6,600 nt of DNA, from IMG/VR virus record IMGVR_UViG_2734482774_000008. One strand, 5' to 3'. This stretch comes from a virus. Taxonomy: Duplodnaviria > Heunggongvirae > Uroviricota > Caudoviricetes. The translations under genes and the position numbers were made by a program. The notes under the pieces are model-generated. The model had not been told where the DNA came from and ran no database searches. It saw nothing but the letters and a program-made list of their open reading frames with translations. This document shows, one piece after another, positions 1 through 6,600 of the stretch (the stretch's first letter is position 1; each line of letters begins with the position of its first letter).

Positions 1-345
1 TTCAGGGGGCCAGTCTAGACAGAATGACGCGATACCGGCTTTCTGTGGCTCGGTCAGTGGAACTTTTATATTGCGCTCCACCCATGCCAGCGCCTTATCA
101 CGCTCAATGGCGTTGACCTGGTCGCATTTTTCCTTCGACAGTTTCATATTGGGAAAAACGTTTTTTCCATCCACCACTGTGGCACCCCGACAGATGGTCC
201 ATATGCCAGAACCATCGCGGTATGCCATTGTGTGGTTACCTTCTTTTTCGTCCAGAAACTGGTCAAGTATCTGAGGAGCAGATGCGCCAGCACCAATCAG
301 CGCCAGAACGGCAGCCGACAGGCCGTATCTGATTTTTGTGTTCAT
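1..345 (-). CDS. SAR endolysin (T4-lysozyme-family phage lysozyme, RrrD/R21-like); 5' portion only (115 codons), continues beyond window position 1
   Basis: Manual translation of the minus strand from ATG at 345..343 gives MNTKIRYGLSAAVLALIGAGASAPQILDQFLDEKEGNHTMAYRDGSGIWTICRG..., open through position 1. Hydrophobic Gly/Ala-rich N-terminus typical of a signal-anchor-release domain, followed by Glu-(8aa)-Asp-(5aa)-Thr spacing matching the T4 lysozyme catalytic triad. The start ATG overlaps the upstream stop (ATGA). Not in the ORF track because it has no stop inside the window. Confidence 0.85.
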   Translation of the reverse strand, partial: MNTKIRYGLSAAVLALIGAGASAPQILDQFLDEKEGNHTMAYRDGSGIWTICRGATVVDGKNVFPNMKLSKEKCDQVNAIERDKALAWVERNIKVPLTEPQKAGIASFCLDWPPE

Positions 346-653
346 AGATATTTATGATGAGGACGCTCGTGCTTATTGGCAGGATTTTCAATCTTAAAGG
401 AGTACTGATGCTGCAGATAAGACTCAACTTTTTCTGACAATTTTTCTGCTACTTCCAGGAAGACTTGCCGGACGCTCATTCTGGCTGCTGCCTCATAAAA
501 CTCCAGCGCAGCTCCTTCAACACGGTCCATGGCGACATCCAGGCCAAAAATTTCACCGTCAAAGCGTTCTTTGTCCTGTAAGGCTACAGTTACCGTAACT
601 TTATTCTCAAAATTACGGACTCCTTTCACAACCAGTTCATAGTCTTGAGTCAT
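342..653 (-). CDS. ydfR: YdfR-like small prophage protein (DUF1327 family as recalled), encoded between holin and endolysin
   Basis: 103-aa ORF with AGGAG Shine-Dalgarno about 9 nt upstream of the ATG. Length, position and sequence match my recollection of E. coli Qin prophage YdfR. Stop overlaps the endolysin start, implying translational coupling. Confidence 0.7.
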   Translation of the reverse strand: MTQDYELVVKGVRNFENKVTVTVALQDKERFDGEIFGLDVAMDRVEGAALEFYEAAARMSVRQVFLEVAEKLSEKVESYLQHQYSFKIENPANKHERPHHKYL

Positions 654-657
654 TGGA

Positions 658-873
658 TTACTCTCCTCTCGCAGCCTTACGCCTGTCTTCTTTAATCTTG
701 AAATAAAGATTTGTCAGATACGTCAGCATGCCAAATACCAGACTACCCAATACACCTATTGCCGCCCACTGTGAGGGCGTGACTTTATCGAGCAACTGTA
801 AAAACCAGTAGCCAGCACTGCCTGCAGAGGTGCTGTAGGCGATGCCCGTTGTTAACTTATCCATGGATTTCAT
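658..873 (-). CDS. essD: Class II holin, S21-type pinholin (EssD/EssQ-like) with dual-start motif
   Basis: Translation from ATG at 873 gives [71 protein letters not shown] (71 aa), closely matching phage 21 S and E. coli EssD as recalled. Two predicted TM segments and a charged C-terminus. GGAGGTG Shine-Dalgarno immediately upstream. The MKSM N-terminus gives two in-frame starts (Met1, Met4). The track's 99-aa ORF carries an unsupported N-terminal extension. Confidence 0.9.
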
Positions 874-963
874 AGCCTCACCTCCGCAGATAACGGATGG
901 TGTACACGGTTTGGTTCGAAGAAGGAAAGAAGTTACATTAGCGTAAGGCCCGAACATCTATTC

Positions 964-994
964 AAAAAGAAAAACGCCAGCAATTATTCTGGCG
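964..994 (-). terminator. Rho-independent terminator downstream of the AraC-family gene (minus-strand orientation)
   Basis: Perfect 6-bp stem CGCCAG/CTGGCG (975..980 and 989..994) with an 8-nt loop. On the minus strand it is followed by TTTTTCTTTTT (complement of 964..974). Sits 70 nt past the AraC stop. Confidence 0.5.
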
Positions 995-1063
995 TAGCTA
1001 AAAATATCGTATAATCTTACACTTCAAAAAATAACTTTATAAAATGCCATCACATCATATCTT

Positions 1064-1777
1064 CTAAGAAAATCTTGATAAATATTGGTGCGGAGGCACA
1101 CCAAAATATCCTCTAAAAACACTTACAAAATATGATGCATTGTCATACCCGCATATTCCCGCCACCTTGCCGACAGTATGGTTACTGTAGATCAATAATC
1201 TTTGCGCCATCATCATTCGTTCTTCAAGAATTAATTTACTAAACGATAATCCTTCGTCTTTTAATTTTCTTTTTAACAAACTCTCGCTCATATATAATCT
1301 TGAAGATATATCACAAAGTCTCCATGACGCTGAGATATCCGAGTGAATAATAGCCTTAACTTTACAACCTAAGCTATTAAGACTTCCGAACAAAAAACTT
1401 TGCACTATTTTCTCTGAAGATAAGACAGCAAGACATGCAAGTGATATTTGATTTCTAACTACATCCACGGTTTTGCTATCACAATTCAAGCATGCAACCA
1501 AGTTCTTTAACAATGAAAAATCTTCACATTCTACTATCAAGTATGACGGATAAAACCTTCTTACAGAAAAAGGTGAGAGTGTGTAGTTTTTAAAGAAATC
1601 ATTAACTGTTTTCTCCTCAACATCTACGATCATTAGATGATCTGTATTTGACGAAAAAAGATCTTTTAAATTGTATTCAATGAGGACAGCATTTCCTTTT
1701 TTAAACAAAATATCTTCTTTACCAATTCGGACACCAAACGAGTTCAACACCAAAATGATAGAATATATGTATGACAT
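1064..1777 (-). CDS. AraC/XylS-family transcriptional regulator (AppY/GadX/YdeO-like), AT-rich horizontally acquired gene
   Basis: C-terminal HTH region ...SESLLKRKLKDEGLSFSKLILEERMMMAQRLLIYSNHTVGKVAGICGYDNASYFVSVFRGYFGVPPHQY is a typical AraC-type double HTH and resembles AppY as recalled. Start placed at ATG 1777 (MSYIYS...), which has an AGGTGG Shine-Dalgarno 5 nt upstream; the track's start at 1786 is GTG. Sampled 60-nt stretches are about one-third G+C, well below flanking genes. Confidence 0.85.
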   Translation of the reverse strand: MSYIYSIILVLNSFGVRIGKEDILFKKGNAVLIEYNLKDLFSSNTDHLMIVDVEEKTVNDFFKNYTLSPFSVRRFYPSYLIVECEDFSLLKNLVACLNCDSKTVDVVRNQISLACLAVLSSEKIVQSFLFGSLNSLGCKVKAIIHSDISASWRLCDISSRLYMSESLLKRKLKDEGLSFSKLILEERMMMAQRLLIYSNHTVGKVAGICGYDNASYFVSVFRGYFGVPPHQYLSRFS

Positions 1778-1990
1778 ATTATCCACCTGATATCATTGGG
1801 GTTACACCAGGTAAGTATAGGTGGAAAATCAATATTCGCCAGTTCAACAATAAGGAAAATCTCATTGCATCACAACTATAAAACCATGTGTTTAACTCAC
1901 AAAAAACAAATCATTAAACTAATCTGTTATATTATAATAGCTGCGTGCAATAATAATATTATATGCTCTTTATATTCACTTGAAATATCT

Positions 1991-2179
1991 TCATATAAAA
2001 ACAGATTGAATAAAATCTTTTGGGGTTGGTATGTTTACCAACATTAAATTGCATCTCAATGTTTTCTTTAGCGTGAACAGGATTTTTATAAAAACTGACA
2101 CTATGAGCATCATAGCGTAGTTTTTACGATTGTAAATATCCTGCATACAGGAACTCATCACTTTCAGATGATATCGCAT
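1991..2179 (-). CDS. Hypothetical small protein (62 aa) between the RudS-like gene and the AraC-family gene; possibly not a real gene
   Basis: ORF begins 5 nt after the RudS-like stop with a weak GGTGA Shine-Dalgarno-like sequence. Contains a hydrophobic stretch (MMLIVSVFIKILFTL). Lies in AT-rich DNA where spurious ORFs are common, with no recognisable homology. Confidence 0.2.
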   Translation of the reverse strand: MRYHLKVMSSCMQDIYNRKNYAMMLIVSVFIKILFTLKKTLRCNLMLVNIPTPKDFIQSVFI

Positions 2180-2183
2180 ACAG

Positions 2184-3143
2184 TTAATTCACCATCAGTC
2201 TTAGAGCCAGTTCTTCCGGATAGGGATCGAAGTAATTCTGTGTAAGCAAGTAATCATTAGGATACTCACCCAGATAATGCTTCAGCAGAGTCAACGGCGC
2301 AAGAAGAGGCAATGTGCCAAAGCGATAGTTAAGTATAACCTCGCTCAACTCTTTACGCTGGCGTGTACTTAAGTAATTACTAAAATACCCCTGTATATGC
2401 ATCAGCACATTCGTGTGATTTTTACGTGATGCTGGTTTTCTGAGAATCGCCATCAGATTATCACGATACACCTCAAAGTATGATTCAAGGTCCGCCCACT
2501 CGTGTATTGCAGCCACAAATGGTCCCATATCTTTATAGCCTGCCTGGCTATGCGCCAACAACTGAAGCTTATAACGACTATGAAAAGCTAATAACTCTCT
2601 TCTTGATAATTTCTCCTTGTAAAGGTGATTGAGCTCATGCAAAGCAAAAACTCTTTCAATAAAATTCTCACGAAGCACTGGATCATGTAATCGCCCATCC
2701 TCTTCAACCGGTAGCCAGGAAAACTTTTCCATCAAAGTGCTCGTAAATAGTCCCACTCCATCTTTACGACCTCGATTACCATTTTCATCATAGACACGCA
2801 CGCGCTCCATGCCACAGCTGGGAGATTTAGCACAAACCACAAACCCCGATACATCCTTTAATTTGTCCATATAAGAACGACTAAACTCTGTCATTCTCTC
2901 TGTCACATCCTCATTCTGGTCGTGGCTGAAACACATCCGTATATTTCCTTGCTTCGAGCGCACAAGTCGTAGAGCAGGACGCGGAACTGGCAGCCCTATA
3001 GCCATTTCCGGACATACTGGTCTGAATGTTACCCATTCCACTAATTTGTCCATTAAAAAGTCATCTCTTTTGTGACCACCATCAAAACGAACAGCAGAAC
3101 CGCCCAAACAACCGCTGATCCCAATCACAGGTTTTTTTATCAT
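2184..3143 (-). CDS. TudS(DUF523)-DUF1722 fusion protein, RudS-like [4Fe-4S] thiouracil / tRNA 4-thiouridine desulfidase
   Basis: 319 aa. N-terminal half carries the TudS signature: Cys12 (GISGCLGG), Cys44-Pro-Glu46 (VCPE), and Ser107-Pro-Ser109-Cys110-Gly (KSPSCG), matching the three cluster-ligating Cys plus catalytic Glu/Ser as recalled. C-terminal half resembles YbgA-type DUF1722, ending ...YFDPYPEELALRLMVN. Strong GGGGGAGGAA Shine-Dalgarno before the ATG at 3143. Confidence 0.85.
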   Translation of the reverse strand: MIKKPVIGISGCLGGSAVRFDGGHKRDDFLMDKLVEWVTFRPVCPEMAIGLPVPRPALRLVRSKQGNIRMCFSHDQNEDVTERMTEFSRSYMDKLKDVSGFVVCAKSPSCGMERVRVYDENGNRGRKDGVGLFTSTLMEKFSWLPVEEDGRLHDPVLRENFIERVFALHELNHLYKEKLSRRELLAFHSRYKLQLLAHSQAGYKDMGPFVAAIHEWADLESYFEVYRDNLMAILRKPASRKNHTNVLMHIQGYFSNYLSTRQRKELSEVILNYRFGTLPLLAPLTLLKHYLGEYPNDYLLTQNYFDPYPEELALRLMVN

Positions 3144-3335
3144 TTCCTCCCCCTTGACTAATTCATTAACACATAAACTTTGTAGTGCACGGACTAAATT
3201 GCCTTTCTGGCTTCATCACTGACAATTTTTCTGTTATTGACTATTCCTAATATAGTAGGAAAGTTCTTTAAGTGATCGGTCGTACTCATCTATCTTTCAT
3301 ACTTACTCTCAACTATCAAAAGTACAGGATTTATT
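3144..3335. promoter_or_regulatory. Divergent intergenic region expected to hold the promoters of the RudS-like gene (minus) and the blc-like gene (plus)
   Basis: 192-bp non-coding spacer between divergent start codons. Contains TTGACT hexamers (3155..3160 and 3236..3241) and a TATAGT hexamer (3251..3256), but I could not pair them into a promoter with canonical spacing. Confidence 0.35.
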
Positions 3336-3860
3336 ATGAAGTTATGGCCTGTGTTGACTGGCATTGCACTCTCTTTCACTCTTATAGCATGTAAGGCCCC
3401 GACACCACCTAAAGGTGTGCAGCCGATTACAAATTTTGACGCCAACCGCTACCTCGGAAAATGGTATGAAATAGCTCGCCTCGAGAACTGGTTCGAACGT
3501 GGTCTGGAACAGGTCAGCGCTACTTATGAAAAACGGAACGACGGAGGGATTCGCGTACTTAACCGTGGATACGATCCAACGAAAAACAAATGGAGCGAGA
3601 GCGAAGGTAAAGCATACTTTACTGGAGATACTAAAACTGCAGCGTTGAAAGTTTCGTTTTTTGGCCCCTTCTATGGTGGCTATAATGTAATCAAACTGGA
3701 TGATGAGTATAAGTATGCTCTTGTCAGTGGTCCGAACAGAGAATACCTATGGATTCTGGCAAGGACCCAAACTATTCCAGATAATGTAAAAGCAGACTAT
3801 GTGCGTACCGCTCAAAAGTTGGGATTCAATGTCAATGAACTATTATGGGTTAAACAATAA
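3336..3860 (+). CDS. blc: Outer-membrane lipoprotein lipocalin, Blc paralogue
   Basis: 174 aa. Signal peptide with lipobox LIAC (Cys19) and Lys at +2. Lipocalin SCR1 motif NFDANRYLGKWYEIAR and the block KAYFTGDTKTAALKVSFFGPFYGGYNVI closely resemble E. coli Blc as recalled (about 60 percent identity estimated by eye, so a paralogue). AGGA Shine-Dalgarno 6 nt upstream. Confidence 0.9.
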   Translation: MKLWPVLTGIALSFTLIACKAPTPPKGVQPITNFDANRYLGKWYEIARLENWFERGLEQVSATYEKRNDGGIRVLNRGYDPTKNKWSESEGKAYFTGDTKTAALKVSFFGPFYGGYNVIKLDDEYKYALVSGPNREYLWILARTQTIPDNVKADYVRTAQKLGFNVNELLWVKQ

Positions 3861-3888
3861 AATCCCCACCCGAAATGATACTTATTAG

Positions 3889-3915
3889 AAAAAAACCAGC
3901 CTTTGGGGAGGCTGG
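3889..3915 (-). terminator. Rho-independent terminator in minus-strand orientation, about 100 nt downstream of the Q gene (tR'-like position)
   Basis: Perfect 7-bp stem CCAGCCT/AGGCTGG (3896..3902 and 3909..3915) with a 6-nt loop. On the minus strand it is followed by seven T (complement of A-run 3889..3895). On the plus strand there is no T-run after the hairpin, so it is at best a weak terminator for blc. Confidence 0.55.
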
Positions 3916-4015
3916 CTAAATCAGGAAACAAGCTGTTATATGATAATAACTACGTTGCGATTCCAACATTTAAAATGTTAGACTAATGAAAATCAGACAG
4001 CAACTTTTCCTTTAA

Positions 4016-4393
4016 TTATTTCGAACAATCAGCATCCATCTCCAATCGGAGATCCAACACCATCAGCATGCCCTCCACTACGCCCTCAGCTTTCTGGAGC
4101 ATCCTGCCAACCCAACAATCAGATCGCCCATGCTTATGTGCAAGCGCCATAAAAGTCATGCCGCCGACATAATAGTCCACCAATAAATCATGTAAATCGC
4201 TGTTGTTTTTTTTCAGGCGAGCCATACATTCACAAATGATCATCGCGTCATCGTCACAGCATTGCGGACGAGATCTTACTTTTGAAGGAATTAATCCCTT
4301 AAAACCGGCGGCAATGGACGACCAGGTCACATCTTCATGATTATTAGCCGCCCATGCCCCCCAACGCTCAAGAACCATCTGAATATCACGCAT
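4016..4393 (-). CDS. Late-gene antitermination protein Q (phage 82 Q / QuuD-like)
   Basis: Translation from ATG 4393 gives [34 protein letters not shown]...[34 protein letters not shown]... (125 aa), matching Q82-family antiterminators such as E. coli QuuD as recalled. GGAG Shine-Dalgarno 7 nt upstream. The track's start at 4408 is a TTG-initiated extension. Confidence 0.85.
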
Positions 4394-4410
4394 CAACTTA
4401 CTCCACAAAA

Positions 4411-5028
4411 TTAGGCCAGCACACCAATTGCCAGCGCGCGATCGATAAATCGAAAAATCAGCTCCAGTTGGGAGCCATACTTCTCTTCAAATGCCACGGT
4501 ATCCGTATGCAACTCGTCGTGATGCTTTCTGCACAAAGGCAAAACAAAGAGATCATGTGCTTTGGTTCCCATTCCGCCCTGCCCGTGACCAATCAGATGA
4601 TGCGGATCGTCGGCTGGCATACCGCAGCAAGCACACGGCTGTGTCTTAACCCAGCGTGTGTATTTCTCCTTAACCCACCGGTGACGTTTAGGCAGCTTCA
4701 TGAAAGATTCCGGAGACTCTGGATCAACGGTGATGCTTACCACCGTCTTTTCCTGTGATGGGTTTTGTTGCTGGTGGGCGTGAGGCAACGGTGCAAGATT
4801 TTTTGTGCGCTGTTTCAATATGCTGGTGGCGGTCTGCTCTCCCGGTACGATGTCGCTTTCGCGGTACACCGAGCAGATTTTTTCCGCTGGTAATCCCAGC
4901 GAGCGACGTAATACCGCTTCCGGTAGCGCGTCCGCCAGCTGATTGCGGACCGCCCACCAGGATAATTCAGCCAGAGATAATTCACGCTCCTGCGTACCGC
5001 TTATTGCGTGACCGATGACGTCAATCAT
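4411..5028 (-). CDS. YdfU-like prophage protein with Cys/His-rich C-terminal domain (DUF968 as recalled); N-terminus possibly truncated or replaced
   Basis: 205-aa ORF immediately upstream of Q on the same strand. C-terminal block [49 protein letters not shown] has a CxxC...HH...C..HH metal-binding pattern. No convincing Shine-Dalgarno before the ATG at 5028, which lies 2 bp from the divergent xis-like start. Confidence 0.65.
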
Positions 5029-5030
5029 CC

Positions 5031-5285
5031 ATGCTGACAGGTTTTGATGAGCAAGTTGCTCGAGTGATTCGGATATCCGAAGAGCAGTTAATTGCGCTGA
5101 AAGGAATAAAAAAAGGTACGTTAAAAAAGGCCCGGGAAAAATCGTTTATGGAAGGAAGGGAATATAAGCATGTCGCTCATGACGGTATGCCATGGGATAA
5201 CAGTCCATGCTTTTACAACCTGGAAGAAATTGATCGCTGGATTGAGCGCCAGGCATCAGCAAGACCAAGACGTCATCTTACTTGA
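5031..5285 (+). CDS. Excisionase-like small DNA-binding protein (Xis-like), upstream of and co-oriented with the integrase
   Basis: 84-aa ORF ending 34 nt before the integrase start. Contains EGREYKHVAHDG, resembling the DGREYLFHESA wing region of lambda Xis as recalled, at a similar distance from the N-terminus. No clear Shine-Dalgarno, so the exact start is uncertain. Confidence 0.55.
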   Translation: MLTGFDEQVARVIRISEEQLIALKGIKKGTLKKAREKSFMEGREYKHVAHDGMPWDNSPCFYNLEEIDRWIERQASARPRRHLT

Positions 5286-5319
5286 CTAAAAGCCACACTA
5301 ACTAATGAGAGAAGTTGAA

Positions 5320-6600
5320 ATGAAATATCCGACAGGCGTGGAAAACCATGGAGGGAAATTACGTATCTGGTTTGTTTATAAAGGCGTAAGAGTCAGGGAA
5401 AATCTGGGGGTTCCTGACACAGCAAAAAACAGGCGCGTTGCAGGTGAACTACGCTCCTCTGTTTGTTACGCAATAAAAACTGGTGTTTTCGACTATGCAA
5501 AACAGTTTCCCTCCTCACGCAATCTGGAAAAATTTGGTGAGGCCCGACAAGATTTAACCATAAAAGAACTGGCTGAAAAATTTCTGGCACTGAAAGAAAC
5601 TGAAGTCGCCAAAACATCACTCAACACATACCGTGCCGTCATCAAAAATATCCTGAGCATAATCGGTGAAAAAAATCTTGCCTCATCGATTAATAAAGAA
5701 AAATTACTGGAGGTTCGTAAAGAGCTACTGACTGGATACCAGATCCCCAAAAGTAACTATATTGTTACACAACCAGGGAGATCGGCTGTAACTGTAAATA
5801 ATTACATGACAAATCTTAACGCCGTGTTCCAGTTTGGTGTTGATAACGGTTACCTGGCAGATAACCCGTTTAAGGGGATCTCGCCATTAAAGGAATCAAG
5901 AACCATTCCGGATCCTCTTTCGCGGGAGGAATTCATCCGTCTTATCGATGCGTGCAGAAATCAGCAAGCCAAAAATTTATGGTGTGTTTCTGTTTATACT
6001 GGCGTTCGCCCTGGTGAGCTGTGTGCACTTGGATGGGAGGACATAGATCTGAAAAATGGAACAATGATGATCAGGAGAAATTTAGCAAAAGACCGTTTCA
6101 CGGTCCCAAAAACACAGGCGGGAACCAATCGGGTCATTCATCTTATTAAGCCAGCAATCGACGCTCTCCGGAGTCAGATGACATTAACGAGACTGAGCAA
6201 AGAGCATATCATTGATGTTCACCTCAGAGAGTATGGCAGAACAGAAAAACATAAATGCACCTTTGTTTTTCAACCTGAAGTGTCAGCGAGAGTAAAAAAT
6301 TATGGTGACCATTTTACCGTTGACTCAATAAGGCAGATGTGGGACGCAGCGATAAAACGTGCCGGACTCCGCCATCGAAAATCATATCAGTCGAGACATA
6401 CTTATGCCTGCTGGTCGCTGACAGCTGGTGCTAACCCGGCATTTATAGCAAACCAGATGGGCCATGCAGATGCGCAAATGGTATTTCAGGTATACGGAAA
6501 ATGGATGTCTGAAAACAATAATGCACAGGTAGCTTTGTTAAATACACAGTTAAGCGAGTTTGCCCCAACCATGCCCCATAACGAAGCAATGAAAAATTAA
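5320..6600 (+). CDS. int: Phage tyrosine integrase (Rac IntR-like, with N-terminal arm-binding-type domain)
   Basis: Translation from ATG 5320 (GAGAGA purine-rich stretch upstream) gives MKYPTGVENHGGKLRIWFVYKGVRVRENLG..., resembling the IntR-type N-terminal domain as recalled. C-terminal catalytic signatures present: TGVRPGEL (Arg), SRHTYACWSL (Arg-His), GHADAQMVFQVYGKW (His and catalytic Tyr). Stop codon is the last three bases of the window. Confidence 0.9.
   Translation: MKYPTGVENHGGKLRIWFVYKGVRVRENLGVPDTAKNRRVAGELRSSVCYAIKTGVFDYAKQFPSSRNLEKFGEARQDLTIKELAEKFLALKETEVAKTSLNTYRAVIKNILSIIGEKNLASSINKEKLLEVRKELLTGYQIPKSNYIVTQPGRSAVTVNNYMTNLNAVFQFGVDNGYLADNPFKGISPLKESRTIPDPLSREEFIRLIDACRNQQAKNLWCVSVYTGVRPGELCALGWEDIDLKNGTMMIRRNLAKDRFTVPKTQAGTNRVIHLIKPAIDALRSQMTLTRLSKEHIIDVHLREYGRTEKHKCTFVFQPEVSARVKNYGDHFTVDSIRQMWDAAIKRAGLRHRKSYQSRHTYACWSLTAGANPAFIANQMGHADAQMVFQVYGKWMSENNNAQVALLNTQLSEFAPTMPHNEAMKN

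Follow-up and report, generated by a model that had tools for sequence, protein, structure and literature searches.

The 6,600-nucleotide (nt) stretch of viral DNA analyzed here, IMG/VR record IMGVR_UViG_2734482774_000008 (the window, by which we mean the whole stretch), is the Qin prophage locus of Escherichia coli, flanked by ydfJ and rspB. Between the antiterminator gene Q and the holin gene it carries three cargo genes: blc for a lipocalin lipoprotein, rudS for a tRNA 4-thiouridine (s4U) desulfidase, and a gene for an AraC/XylS-family regulator that we will call araC. We read positions 894–4033 as a mobile moron module of lambda-like coliphages, assembled in two layers behind one allele of Q, the late promoter (PR′) and its terminator (tR′), and housed here in a decayed Qin; we put the probability of this reading at about 0.8. 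The first layer would be a divergent blc/rudS pair taken as one piece from an enterobacterial chromosome, and the second a low-G+C AraC regulator of the GadW/YdeO/AppY/Psr clade, acquired or exchanged separately. Today Q, the late-promoter region and the three genes travel together as a single unit. In phages that are intact, rudS and araC would lie on the path of the Q-antiterminated late transcript, which would read blc antisense, and each gene, ending in its own hairpin, would act as a unit of lysogenic conversion.

The layout of the block is clear from its open reading frames (ORFs) and a Pfam scan. From Q to the holin the order is blc (plus strand), rudS (minus) and araC (minus), and 3142 nt separate the Q stop from the holin start (3058 nt to the start of a longer holin ORF). 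An initial annotation of the DNA, made from the letters alone, had proposed an approximately 3-kb island in this slot holding a Blc-like lipoprotein, a RudS-like desulfidase and an AraC/XylS regulator; ORFs, Pfam and NCBIfam all agree with it. Its comparison with other prophages is also correct, as cspB/cspF in K-12 Qin, nmpC in DLP12 and stx2AB in an Stx2k phage each lie between Q and the holin, and rudS and araC are indeed co-oriented with Q and the lysis genes. G+C had been judged by eye at about one-third for the AraC segment and near 45 percent for the other two; the values are 33.2% for araC, 43.2% for rudS and 43.8% for blc, with 30.7% in the araC–rudS spacer and 37.9% over the whole block. 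A tRNA scan of the window found no tRNA genes, which Stx and Sp4 phages do carry in the same slot. PADLOC matched none of five proteins (the three cargo proteins, truncated YdfU and YdfR) to known defence families, and Rfam at a permissive threshold returned only two sub-threshold chance matches, one of them over the tR′-like hairpin.

The block recurs widely, which answers a question raised by the initial annotation. A match to the 3056-bp sequence is present in 1154 of 5426 complete E. coli genomes; in 883 it covers 80% or more of the block, and some genomes hold two or three copies. One class of copies (~99% identity) sits at the Qin locus, and another (~94%) in a complete lambda-like prophage at attLambda beside ybhC. 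Among phage genomes, megablast found one complete phage at 94% over the block and 11 more records matching the rudS–blc part at 91%. Those 11 also carry an AraC allele, missed by megablast in the 1H12 group because it is only 75% identical at the protein level; thus all three cargo genes are present in 12 of the 12 phage records that match the block, with the AraC allele at 75% identity or more. The phages come from different sources, IdasGreatGrand from swamp mud and 1H12 and the Lambda_ev/Jouyvirus phages from infant faeces. The block therefore occupies two or more chromosomal sites as well as viable lambda-like phages (IdasGreatGrand, 1H12, Lambda_ev), and in every case it fills the Q-to-holin slot and follows the same Q/late-promoter allele. 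An apparent natural two-gene variant lacking araC was considered and rejected: the loss in strain S30 is an IS1-mediated deletion, and the 1H12-type AraC is present but diverged. In Rosetta2(DE3), of the BL21 lineage (101–1497 of the extracted locus), Qin keeps blc with the window's protein, and its Q departs from that of the window at a single residue. The rudS annotation there is limited to the first 147 nt, so B-lineage laboratory strains appear to have a truncated rudS, although the arbitrary start of the circular record falls 100 bp upstream of this fragment.

The unit shared among these phages spans 657–4435 of the window; it starts at the 3′ end of the holin gene and stops 27 bp upstream of Q. 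It is ~92% identical overall in IdasGreatGrand and in the attLambda (ybhC) prophage; in 1H12 identity is 90% over rudS, blc and Q and ~80% over the holin–araC part. Outside the unit the backbones differ, with ylcG/rusA versus ydfU on one side and rrrD versus ydfR and rrrQ on the other. K-12 Qin has only 18–902 and 4411–5077 in common with the window and carries a different Q plus cspB/cspF, so Q has been swapped there together with the cargo. The edges of the module are sharp: on the holin side, homology to the window resumes at 893 for DLP12 and at 902 for K-12 Qin, and on the other side the ~84% nucleotide identity of the window Q to DLP12 quuD and phage 434 Q stops at base 4034. Among 50,697 phage records, only the same 12 that carry the cargo have the final codons of this Q, its late-promoter region and its terminator, and the late-promoter region shows no similarity to Sp4 or DLP12 past the coding part of Q. 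The window Q is itself intact and 97.6% identical to that of the viable phage IdasGreatGrand.

Measured against what a moron should look like, the block lies between Q, with its promoter-like site and terminator, and the holin, in a layout repeated in viable phages. For phage growth it is dispensable, as the slot behind a related Q holds other content in K-12 Qin, DLP12, 434-type and Stx phages. As to autonomous expression, terminator-like hairpins follow rudS and araC, promoter-like sites stand at the level of shuffled sequence, and the one direct sign is the detection by proteomics, in a lysogen, of a near-identical Blc allele. Between alleles, the ratio of nonsynonymous to synonymous divergence (dN/dS) is 0.10–0.24 for all three cargo genes (0.10–0.23 for blc, 0.21–0.22 for araC), which indicates purifying selection. 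The three genes are also intact in independently decayed Qin copies, namely that of ET881, which has a different deletion, and the nearly complete one of UTME-7; in some other strains an insertion sequence (IS) element hits blc, rudS or araC.

Where the cargo came from is suggested by a scan of rudS loci that took one genome per species. It returned 64 loci, two of them mis-binned E. coli prophage contigs, leaving 62 from outside E. coli. (Contigs L068 and L073, assigned to a metagenome-assembled genome of "Candidatus Nanosynbacter," encode Q, Blc, RudS, AraC and the holin at 85–97% protein identity and are almost certainly mis-binned E. coli prophage DNA.) At 42 of the 62 loci a blc homolog (68–80% identical) lies divergently upstream of rudS (66–76% identical). 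A panel of lambdoid phages matches at only 3 of the 62, and of these only the Citrobacter murliniae locus clearly belongs to a prophage. At most Enterobacter and Leclercia loci blc and rudS are separated by two genes, one for an MlrA-like MerR regulator and one transthyretin-like. Citrobacter sedlakii has blc and rudS side by side, with no adjacent regulator and a spacer of 187 bp versus 192 bp in the window, and the pair sits among housekeeping genes of the yjbB, betT, rluF and lysC types. The divergent arrangement recurs in ORF242–ORF319 of Salmonella pathogenicity island 2. These chromosomal loci differ from the window in lacking Q, holin and AraC genes in their neighborhood and in protein identities of only 66–80%, and their blc/rudS spacers have no conserved control elements in common with those of the phages. 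From the divergent chromosomal pair and its like spacing in C. sedlakii, blc and rudS were most likely captured from an enterobacterial chromosome in one piece.

The regulator appears to have a separate history. No AraC homolog occurs at the 62 chromosomal rudS loci. When the window is compared with the IdasGreatGrand and attLambda alleles, the rudS–blc–Q segment is 96–100% identical, and the AraC gene with its AT-rich spacer 59–97%; synonymous divergence (dS) between phage alleles is 0.33–0.60 for araC versus 0.04–0.29 for rudS and blc. Absence from the chromosomal loci and the much higher dS together argue that araC was added or exchanged apart from the pair. The initial annotation had seen stepwise acquisition in the unequal composition of the three genes, and this now stands for AraC and falls for blc relative to rudS.

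Two further rudS occurrences came out of the scan. On the C. murliniae chromosome (6001–6957 of the extracted locus), a 72% identical rudS homolog lies in a lambdoid prophage of another kind; it precedes a DUF968 gene instead of following Q, is unaccompanied by blc, and looks like an independent phage capture. Citrobacter braakii ATCC 51113 has a full-length rudS homolog (75%) on each of two contigs, with no blc within 6 kb.

Of the three products, RudS is the best understood. It joins a TudS (DUF523) domain (PF04463, residues 7–149, E 5.8e-40) to DUF1722 (PF08349, residues 192–309, E 9.4e-40), is identical to WP_000592549.1, and is 91.8% identical to RudS_vir, gp66 of phage 1H12. RudS_vir is the same 319-residue fusion with the same cysteines and also lies between blc and an AraC gene in the Q-to-holin slot; the window protein is a different allele and resides not in a viable phage but in a defective Qin. 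Jamontas et al. (NAR 2024, PMC11417400) synthesized and expressed RudS_vir and found that every RudS tested lowered tRNA s4U, RudS_vir doing so in vivo, and that RudS over-expression shortens the growth delay caused by ultraviolet A (UVA) light. They give Cys12, Cys44 and Cys110 as the [4Fe-4S] cluster ligands of RudS_vir and RudS_ST (PMC11417400, Table 1). All three are present in the window protein, where they align with Cys10, Cys43 and Cys104 of crystallized TudS (6z92) in the CPE and SPSCG motifs. By analogy with this 92%-identical phage ortholog, the window RudS would remove UVA-sensitive s4U from tRNA. The same paper states that RudS is missing from E. coli (PMC11417400), and its supplement has nothing on phage or lipocalin. 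The statement is true for K-12 and not for the species, as at least 16% of complete genomes carry a prophage rudS. Downstream of the gene, the 3′ untranslated region (2085–2183, minus strand) forms two strong hairpins (−34.5 kcal/mol, z −6.1 versus shuffles), the second followed by a U-run, and holds more structure than a simple terminator requires.

Blc clears its NCBIfam cut-off (NF007786, 312.6 versus 267 bits), and residues 20–174 align with the structure of E. coli Blc (3mbt). It shares the Lipocalin_2 family and lipobox with the chromosomal E. coli Blc but only 63% of its residues, and is closer (76–80%) to the Blc paired with RudS in Enterobacter, Leclercia and Citrobacter. Its N-terminus, MKLWPVLTGIALSFTLIAC-KA, has the lipobox LIAC, Cys19, and Lys rather than Asp at +2; lipoproteins lacking Asp at this position are sorted to the outer membrane. 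We infer from these features that the window Blc is an outer-membrane lipocalin lipoprotein. The attLambda prophage allele, WP_000780581.1, is 97.7% identical to it and has been quantified by proteomics in E. coli CCUG 70745, where it rises 2–3-fold within 15 min of meropenem (PMC13459554); the gene is thus expressed in a lysogen. Mathieu et al. (Nat Commun 2020, PMC6969025) had already counted the gene as a moron: of their 19 lambda phages from the infant gut, the Lambda_ev/1H12 set, more than 50% carry blc. A literature search for a link between lipocalins and LitR light regulons gave nothing useful. The divergent spacer between blc and rudS is 92–100% conserved relative to IdasGreatGrand and the attLambda prophage and 85–98% relative to 1H12. 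At 3244–3261 it holds a perfect 18-bp (6-6-6) palindrome, TTCCTA-ATATAG-TAGGAA, which is identical in 1H12, has one mismatch in IdasGreatGrand, and could be an operator.

The AraC protein is less readily named. Its ORF spans 1064–1786, with the RefSeq start at the ATG at 1777, and its C-terminus carries a double helix-turn-helix (PF12833, residues 161–237, plus PF00165). It aligns end to end with PsrA (37% identity), GadW (33%), AppY (29%) and YdeO (28%), and the NCBIfam YdeO model aligns residues 4–234 to positions 1–229 of 253. It reaches no named NCBIfam equivalog (YdeO, GadX, HilD and others), the best being YdeO at 109 versus 348 bits, and falls in PHROG 1450, of unknown function. On these alignments it is a distinct, unnamed branch. 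The characterized relatives as a group (PsrA/PsrB and PatE of EHEC prophages and the chromosomal GadW, GadX, YdeO and AppY) are also low in G+C and align over their full length, yet at only 26–37% identity and below every equivalog cut-off. The position is familiar: in Sakai prophage Sp4 it is PsrA that sits between Q and the holin, as this gene does in Qin, and a PsrA-like gene stands beside stx2 in an Stx2k phage, so AraC regulators in this slot are an established kind. (PsrA itself, ECs_1087 of O157:H7 Sakai, is annotated at 195 residues; an unbroken 237-codon ORF from 28677, at 28677–29390 of the extracted Sakai locus, matches the full length of its homologs.) PsrA/PsrB and PatE activate gadE/hdeA or other H-NS-silenced host genes (reviewed in PMC10877973). 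Most likely the window regulator would, judging from homology only, likewise cross-regulate H-NS-silenced stress or acid-resistance genes of the host.

How the block might be transcribed can be considered in two settings. In intact phages, transcription would begin at the PR′-like site, of which the 1H12 allele retains the TA...T of the −10 element. An 84-nt leader follows, with a folding energy of −24 kcal/mol (z −3.7), and its tR′-like hairpin is conserved across the three phage alleles. Past the T-run of this hairpin come 27 nt and then the 3′ end of blc, where the cargo begins, so a late transcript would read blc antisense. Q-modified polymerase reads through terminators in other lambdoid phages. 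Here the late transcript must pass three, the tR′-like one and those of rudS and araC, in the 3.1 kb before the holin. Coupling of rudS and araC to the late operon in intact phages, raised in the initial annotation, is anatomically plausible. Terminator-like sites are enriched in the region (7 versus 2.8 ± 1.7 in shuffles), and a terminator-like hairpin after each gene points to each being an autonomous, lysogenic-conversion unit. The AT-rich spacer upstream of araC has promoter-like sites at 2136–2109 and 1902–1875 and is indel-rich between alleles.

The window copy is the second setting. Positions 18–5077 correspond to 20001–25060 of the UTME-7 Qin locus (L001), and 5071–6600 to 33519–35048, at 99.9% identity. 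The 8.46 kb that lie between these segments in UTME-7, and are deleted from the window, hold repressor-like genes, replication genes, an exonuclease and the start of xis. Homology to other Qin copies begins only at base 18, where the terminal inverted repeat of an IS2 breaks rrrQ after ~109 codons; the lysis cassette is thereby broken. With the early region deleted and an IS2 in the endolysin gene, normal induction of this copy is impossible. Its Q is intact but has no early region to drive it, so the only options for expression of the window cargo are autonomous transcription or trans-activation by an identical Q of another resident prophage.

Several points weigh against the reading given at the outset. 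First, we found no donor closer than ~76–80% protein identity, so a single capture is deduced from shared architecture and is not demonstrated. Second, promoter-like sites are not above the level of shuffled sequence (13 versus 11.2 ± 3.9), a promoter scan finds no consensus sigma-70 promoter in the blc/rudS spacer, and the PR′ assignment would follow from position and conservation only. We located no transcription data for the block in any strain, and a literature search on expression of prophage rudS/YbgA upon induction found nothing. Third, RudS_vir is less active on tRNA than the other orthologs tested and has the shortest lag on free 4-thiouracil (PMC11417400), so tRNA need not be its preferred substrate in vivo. 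Finally, the role of the regulator as a cross-regulator is putative, and the window protein has Tyr5 (1763–1765) where all compared homologs (other Qin copies, IdasGreatGrand, 1H12, mEp332, PsrA, GadW, AppY and YdeO) have Cys5, in the motif CS[VI]I; this substitution may be damaging.

Other explanations of the same facts can be offered. The one that survives best, although we still think it unlikely, is that rudS, and perhaps araC, serves mainly as an auxiliary of the lytic phase. After ultraviolet (UV) irradiation and the SOS response, Q-modified polymerase would read from PR′ across tR′, blc (antisense), rudS and araC into the lysis genes, and RudS would erase s4U so that UVA-driven s4U8–C13 cross-links do not slow translation of late proteins. 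In its favor, rudS and araC point the same way as Q and the lysis genes and come after a conserved promoter-like site and tR′-like terminator, and the spacer without a consensus promoter, the carriage of the cassette by viable phages, and the reduced UVA growth delay of cells over-expressing RudS (PMC11417400) all agree with it. Against this, both minus-strand genes have their own terminator-like hairpins, typical of autonomous morons, the orientation of blc and rudS is probably just inherited from the chromosomal pair, and the genes are intact in several non-inducible Qin remnants, the window included, which argues for a benefit in the lysogen.

A more elaborate version of this idea, which we regard as doubtful, is that blc and rudS are an old, functionally linked pair of Enterobacteriaceae for light/UVA and envelope stress, that lambda-like phages took it up directly behind their late promoter, that this placement would make prophage-inducing sunlight switch on the s4U eraser, and that AraC would link the cargo to host stress regulons. 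If so, the eraser would keep tRNA chargeable and translation running during late expression, an auxiliary function of tRNA de-modification tied to the induction signal. The persistence of the cargo in non-inducible remnants weakens this idea as well.

It is similarly improbable that AraC, instead of cross-regulating the host, is a dedicated local regulator of blc and rudS that replaced the MlrA-like MerR regulator of Enterobacter. The AraC gene does always accompany the pair in phages, the Enterobacter chromosomal pair has a regulator of its own that is absent from the phage version, and the spacer offers a conserved palindrome and no consensus promoter. But its nearest characterized relatives (PsrA/B, PatE, GadW, YdeO, AppY) act on host acid-stress regulons, it diverges much faster than blc and rudS, some genomes that retain both have lost it by frameshift or deletion, and the C. 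sedlakii pair manages with no adjacent regulator. That the cargo genes are functionless passengers decaying in a dead prophage is very improbable: the window prophage is heavily decayed and IS insertions or deletions strike one or another of the genes in some strains, but the dN/dS values are those of constrained genes, the window ORFs are intact, with RudS and Blc identical to widespread RefSeq proteins, Blc has been seen at the protein level, and RudS_vir is enzymatically active. Least credible, to the point that we set it aside, is the possibility noted in the initial annotation that the trio is a pre-existing chromosomal locus merely flanked by prophage sequence, because, although other Enterobacteriaceae have a chromosomal blc/rudS pair, their homologs are only 66–80% identical and lack the AraC gene, and in E. 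coli the block moves inside phage genomes to different attachment sites, always between Q and the holin, and is missing from the Qin site of K-12.

Coordinates of the cargo and of its surroundings are collected in Table 1. Two details concern genes outside the cargo. The holin begins MKSM (865–873), the dual-start Met1/Met4 arrangement of phage 21 S that yields holin and antiholin; a longer, 99-residue ORF is open upstream to 957, and the RefSeq start ignores this form. At the other end, the deletion junction joins antisense ydfU sequence to truncated xis, and the resulting 84-residue "excisionase" ORF (5031–5285) is chimeric, its first 14 codons being antisense ydfU and the first ~9 codons of xis being gone.

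Table 1. Features of the window, in order of position
Feature	Position	Strand	Basis
Terminal 17 bp of IS2, inserted in the endolysin gene (context, not cargo)	1–17		Identical to first 17 bp of K-12 IS2A
rrrQ endolysin gene, 5′ part, cut by IS2	18–345	−	UTME-7 rrrQ (L001 19795–20328), 99.9% identity
ydfR (DUF1327), lysis module	342–653	−	Pfam PF07041, E 1e-51
S21-type holin gene (essD/essQ-like), downstream edge of cargo slot	658–873	−	Pfam PF04971; identical to UTME-7 holin
Terminator-like hairpin and T-run after araC	964–995	−	Terminator scan, fold
araC, AraC/XylS-family regulator (GadW/YdeO/AppY/Psr clade), 237 aa, 33% G+C	1064–1777	−	Pfam HTH_18, HTH_AraC; RefSeq ATG 1777
AT-rich spacer (~31% G+C) with araC promoter-like sites and rudS 3′ hairpins (~2088–2127)	1778–2183	−	Composition, scans, fold
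rudS, TudS (DUF523) + DUF1722 fusion, 319 aa, predicted tRNA 4-thiouridine desulfidase	2184–3143	−	Pfam PF04463 + PF08349
Divergent blc/rudS control region, 192 bp	3144–3335		Sequence, alignment
blc, outer-membrane lipoprotein lipocalin (predicted), 174 aa, antisense to late transcript	3336–3860	+	Pfam Lipocalin_2 PF08212, E 7.5e-43
tR′-like intrinsic terminator of short late-promoter transcript	3889–3917	−	9-bp G+C-rich stem + T7; ~50 nt past promoter-like site
PR′-like late promoter (inferred), TTGCTG, 17 nt, TAACAT	3975–4003	−	Read from sequence; 12 bases after Q stop
Antiterminator gene Q (QuuD/434-type), 125 aa, intact	4016–4393 (ORF to 4408)	−	Pfam PF06530, E 1.6e-50
ydfU (DUF968), 3′ fragment, deletion-truncated	4411–5073 (DUF968 fragment 4411–5028)	−	Pfam DUF968; homology to full-length ydfU stops at 5077
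Deletion junction (8.46 kb gone; immunity, replication, recombination region)	5071–5077		Mapping to UTME-7 L001, junction sequences
Truncated xis (to 5285, fused to antisense ydfU) and integrase (5320–6600), rspB end of Qin	5074–6600	+	Pfam DUF1233, Arm-DNA-bind_2, Phage_integrase; mapping to L001

Much about the parts of this module is already known: rudS and blc have been reported from the very same cassette, and the AraC protein belongs to a known class of prophage regulators. Our analysis adds the structure of the unit (three genes behind a Q/PR′ allele), a figure for how common it is in E. coli, and a probable chromosomal origin for blc and rudS as a pair. It leaves the general picture of lambdoid morons in this slot between Q and the holin as it was. 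The stx genes of Stx phages, nmpC of DLP12 and cspB/cspF of K-12 Qin occupy the same place downstream of Q and the late promoter and upstream of the holin; they are other genes, and the cargo described here differs further in being co-inherited with an allele-specific Q C-terminus, PR′ and tR′. For the biology of the bacterium, the module places a widespread but uncharacterized Psr/GadW-like regulator in commensal and clinical E. coli, and the ancestral chromosomal pairing of blc and rudS is a concrete lead on what keeps a lipocalin in the company of a tRNA de-modifying enzyme. As about 1 in 6 complete E. coli genomes has an intact-length prophage cassette, s4U levels and UVA responses may vary between strains.

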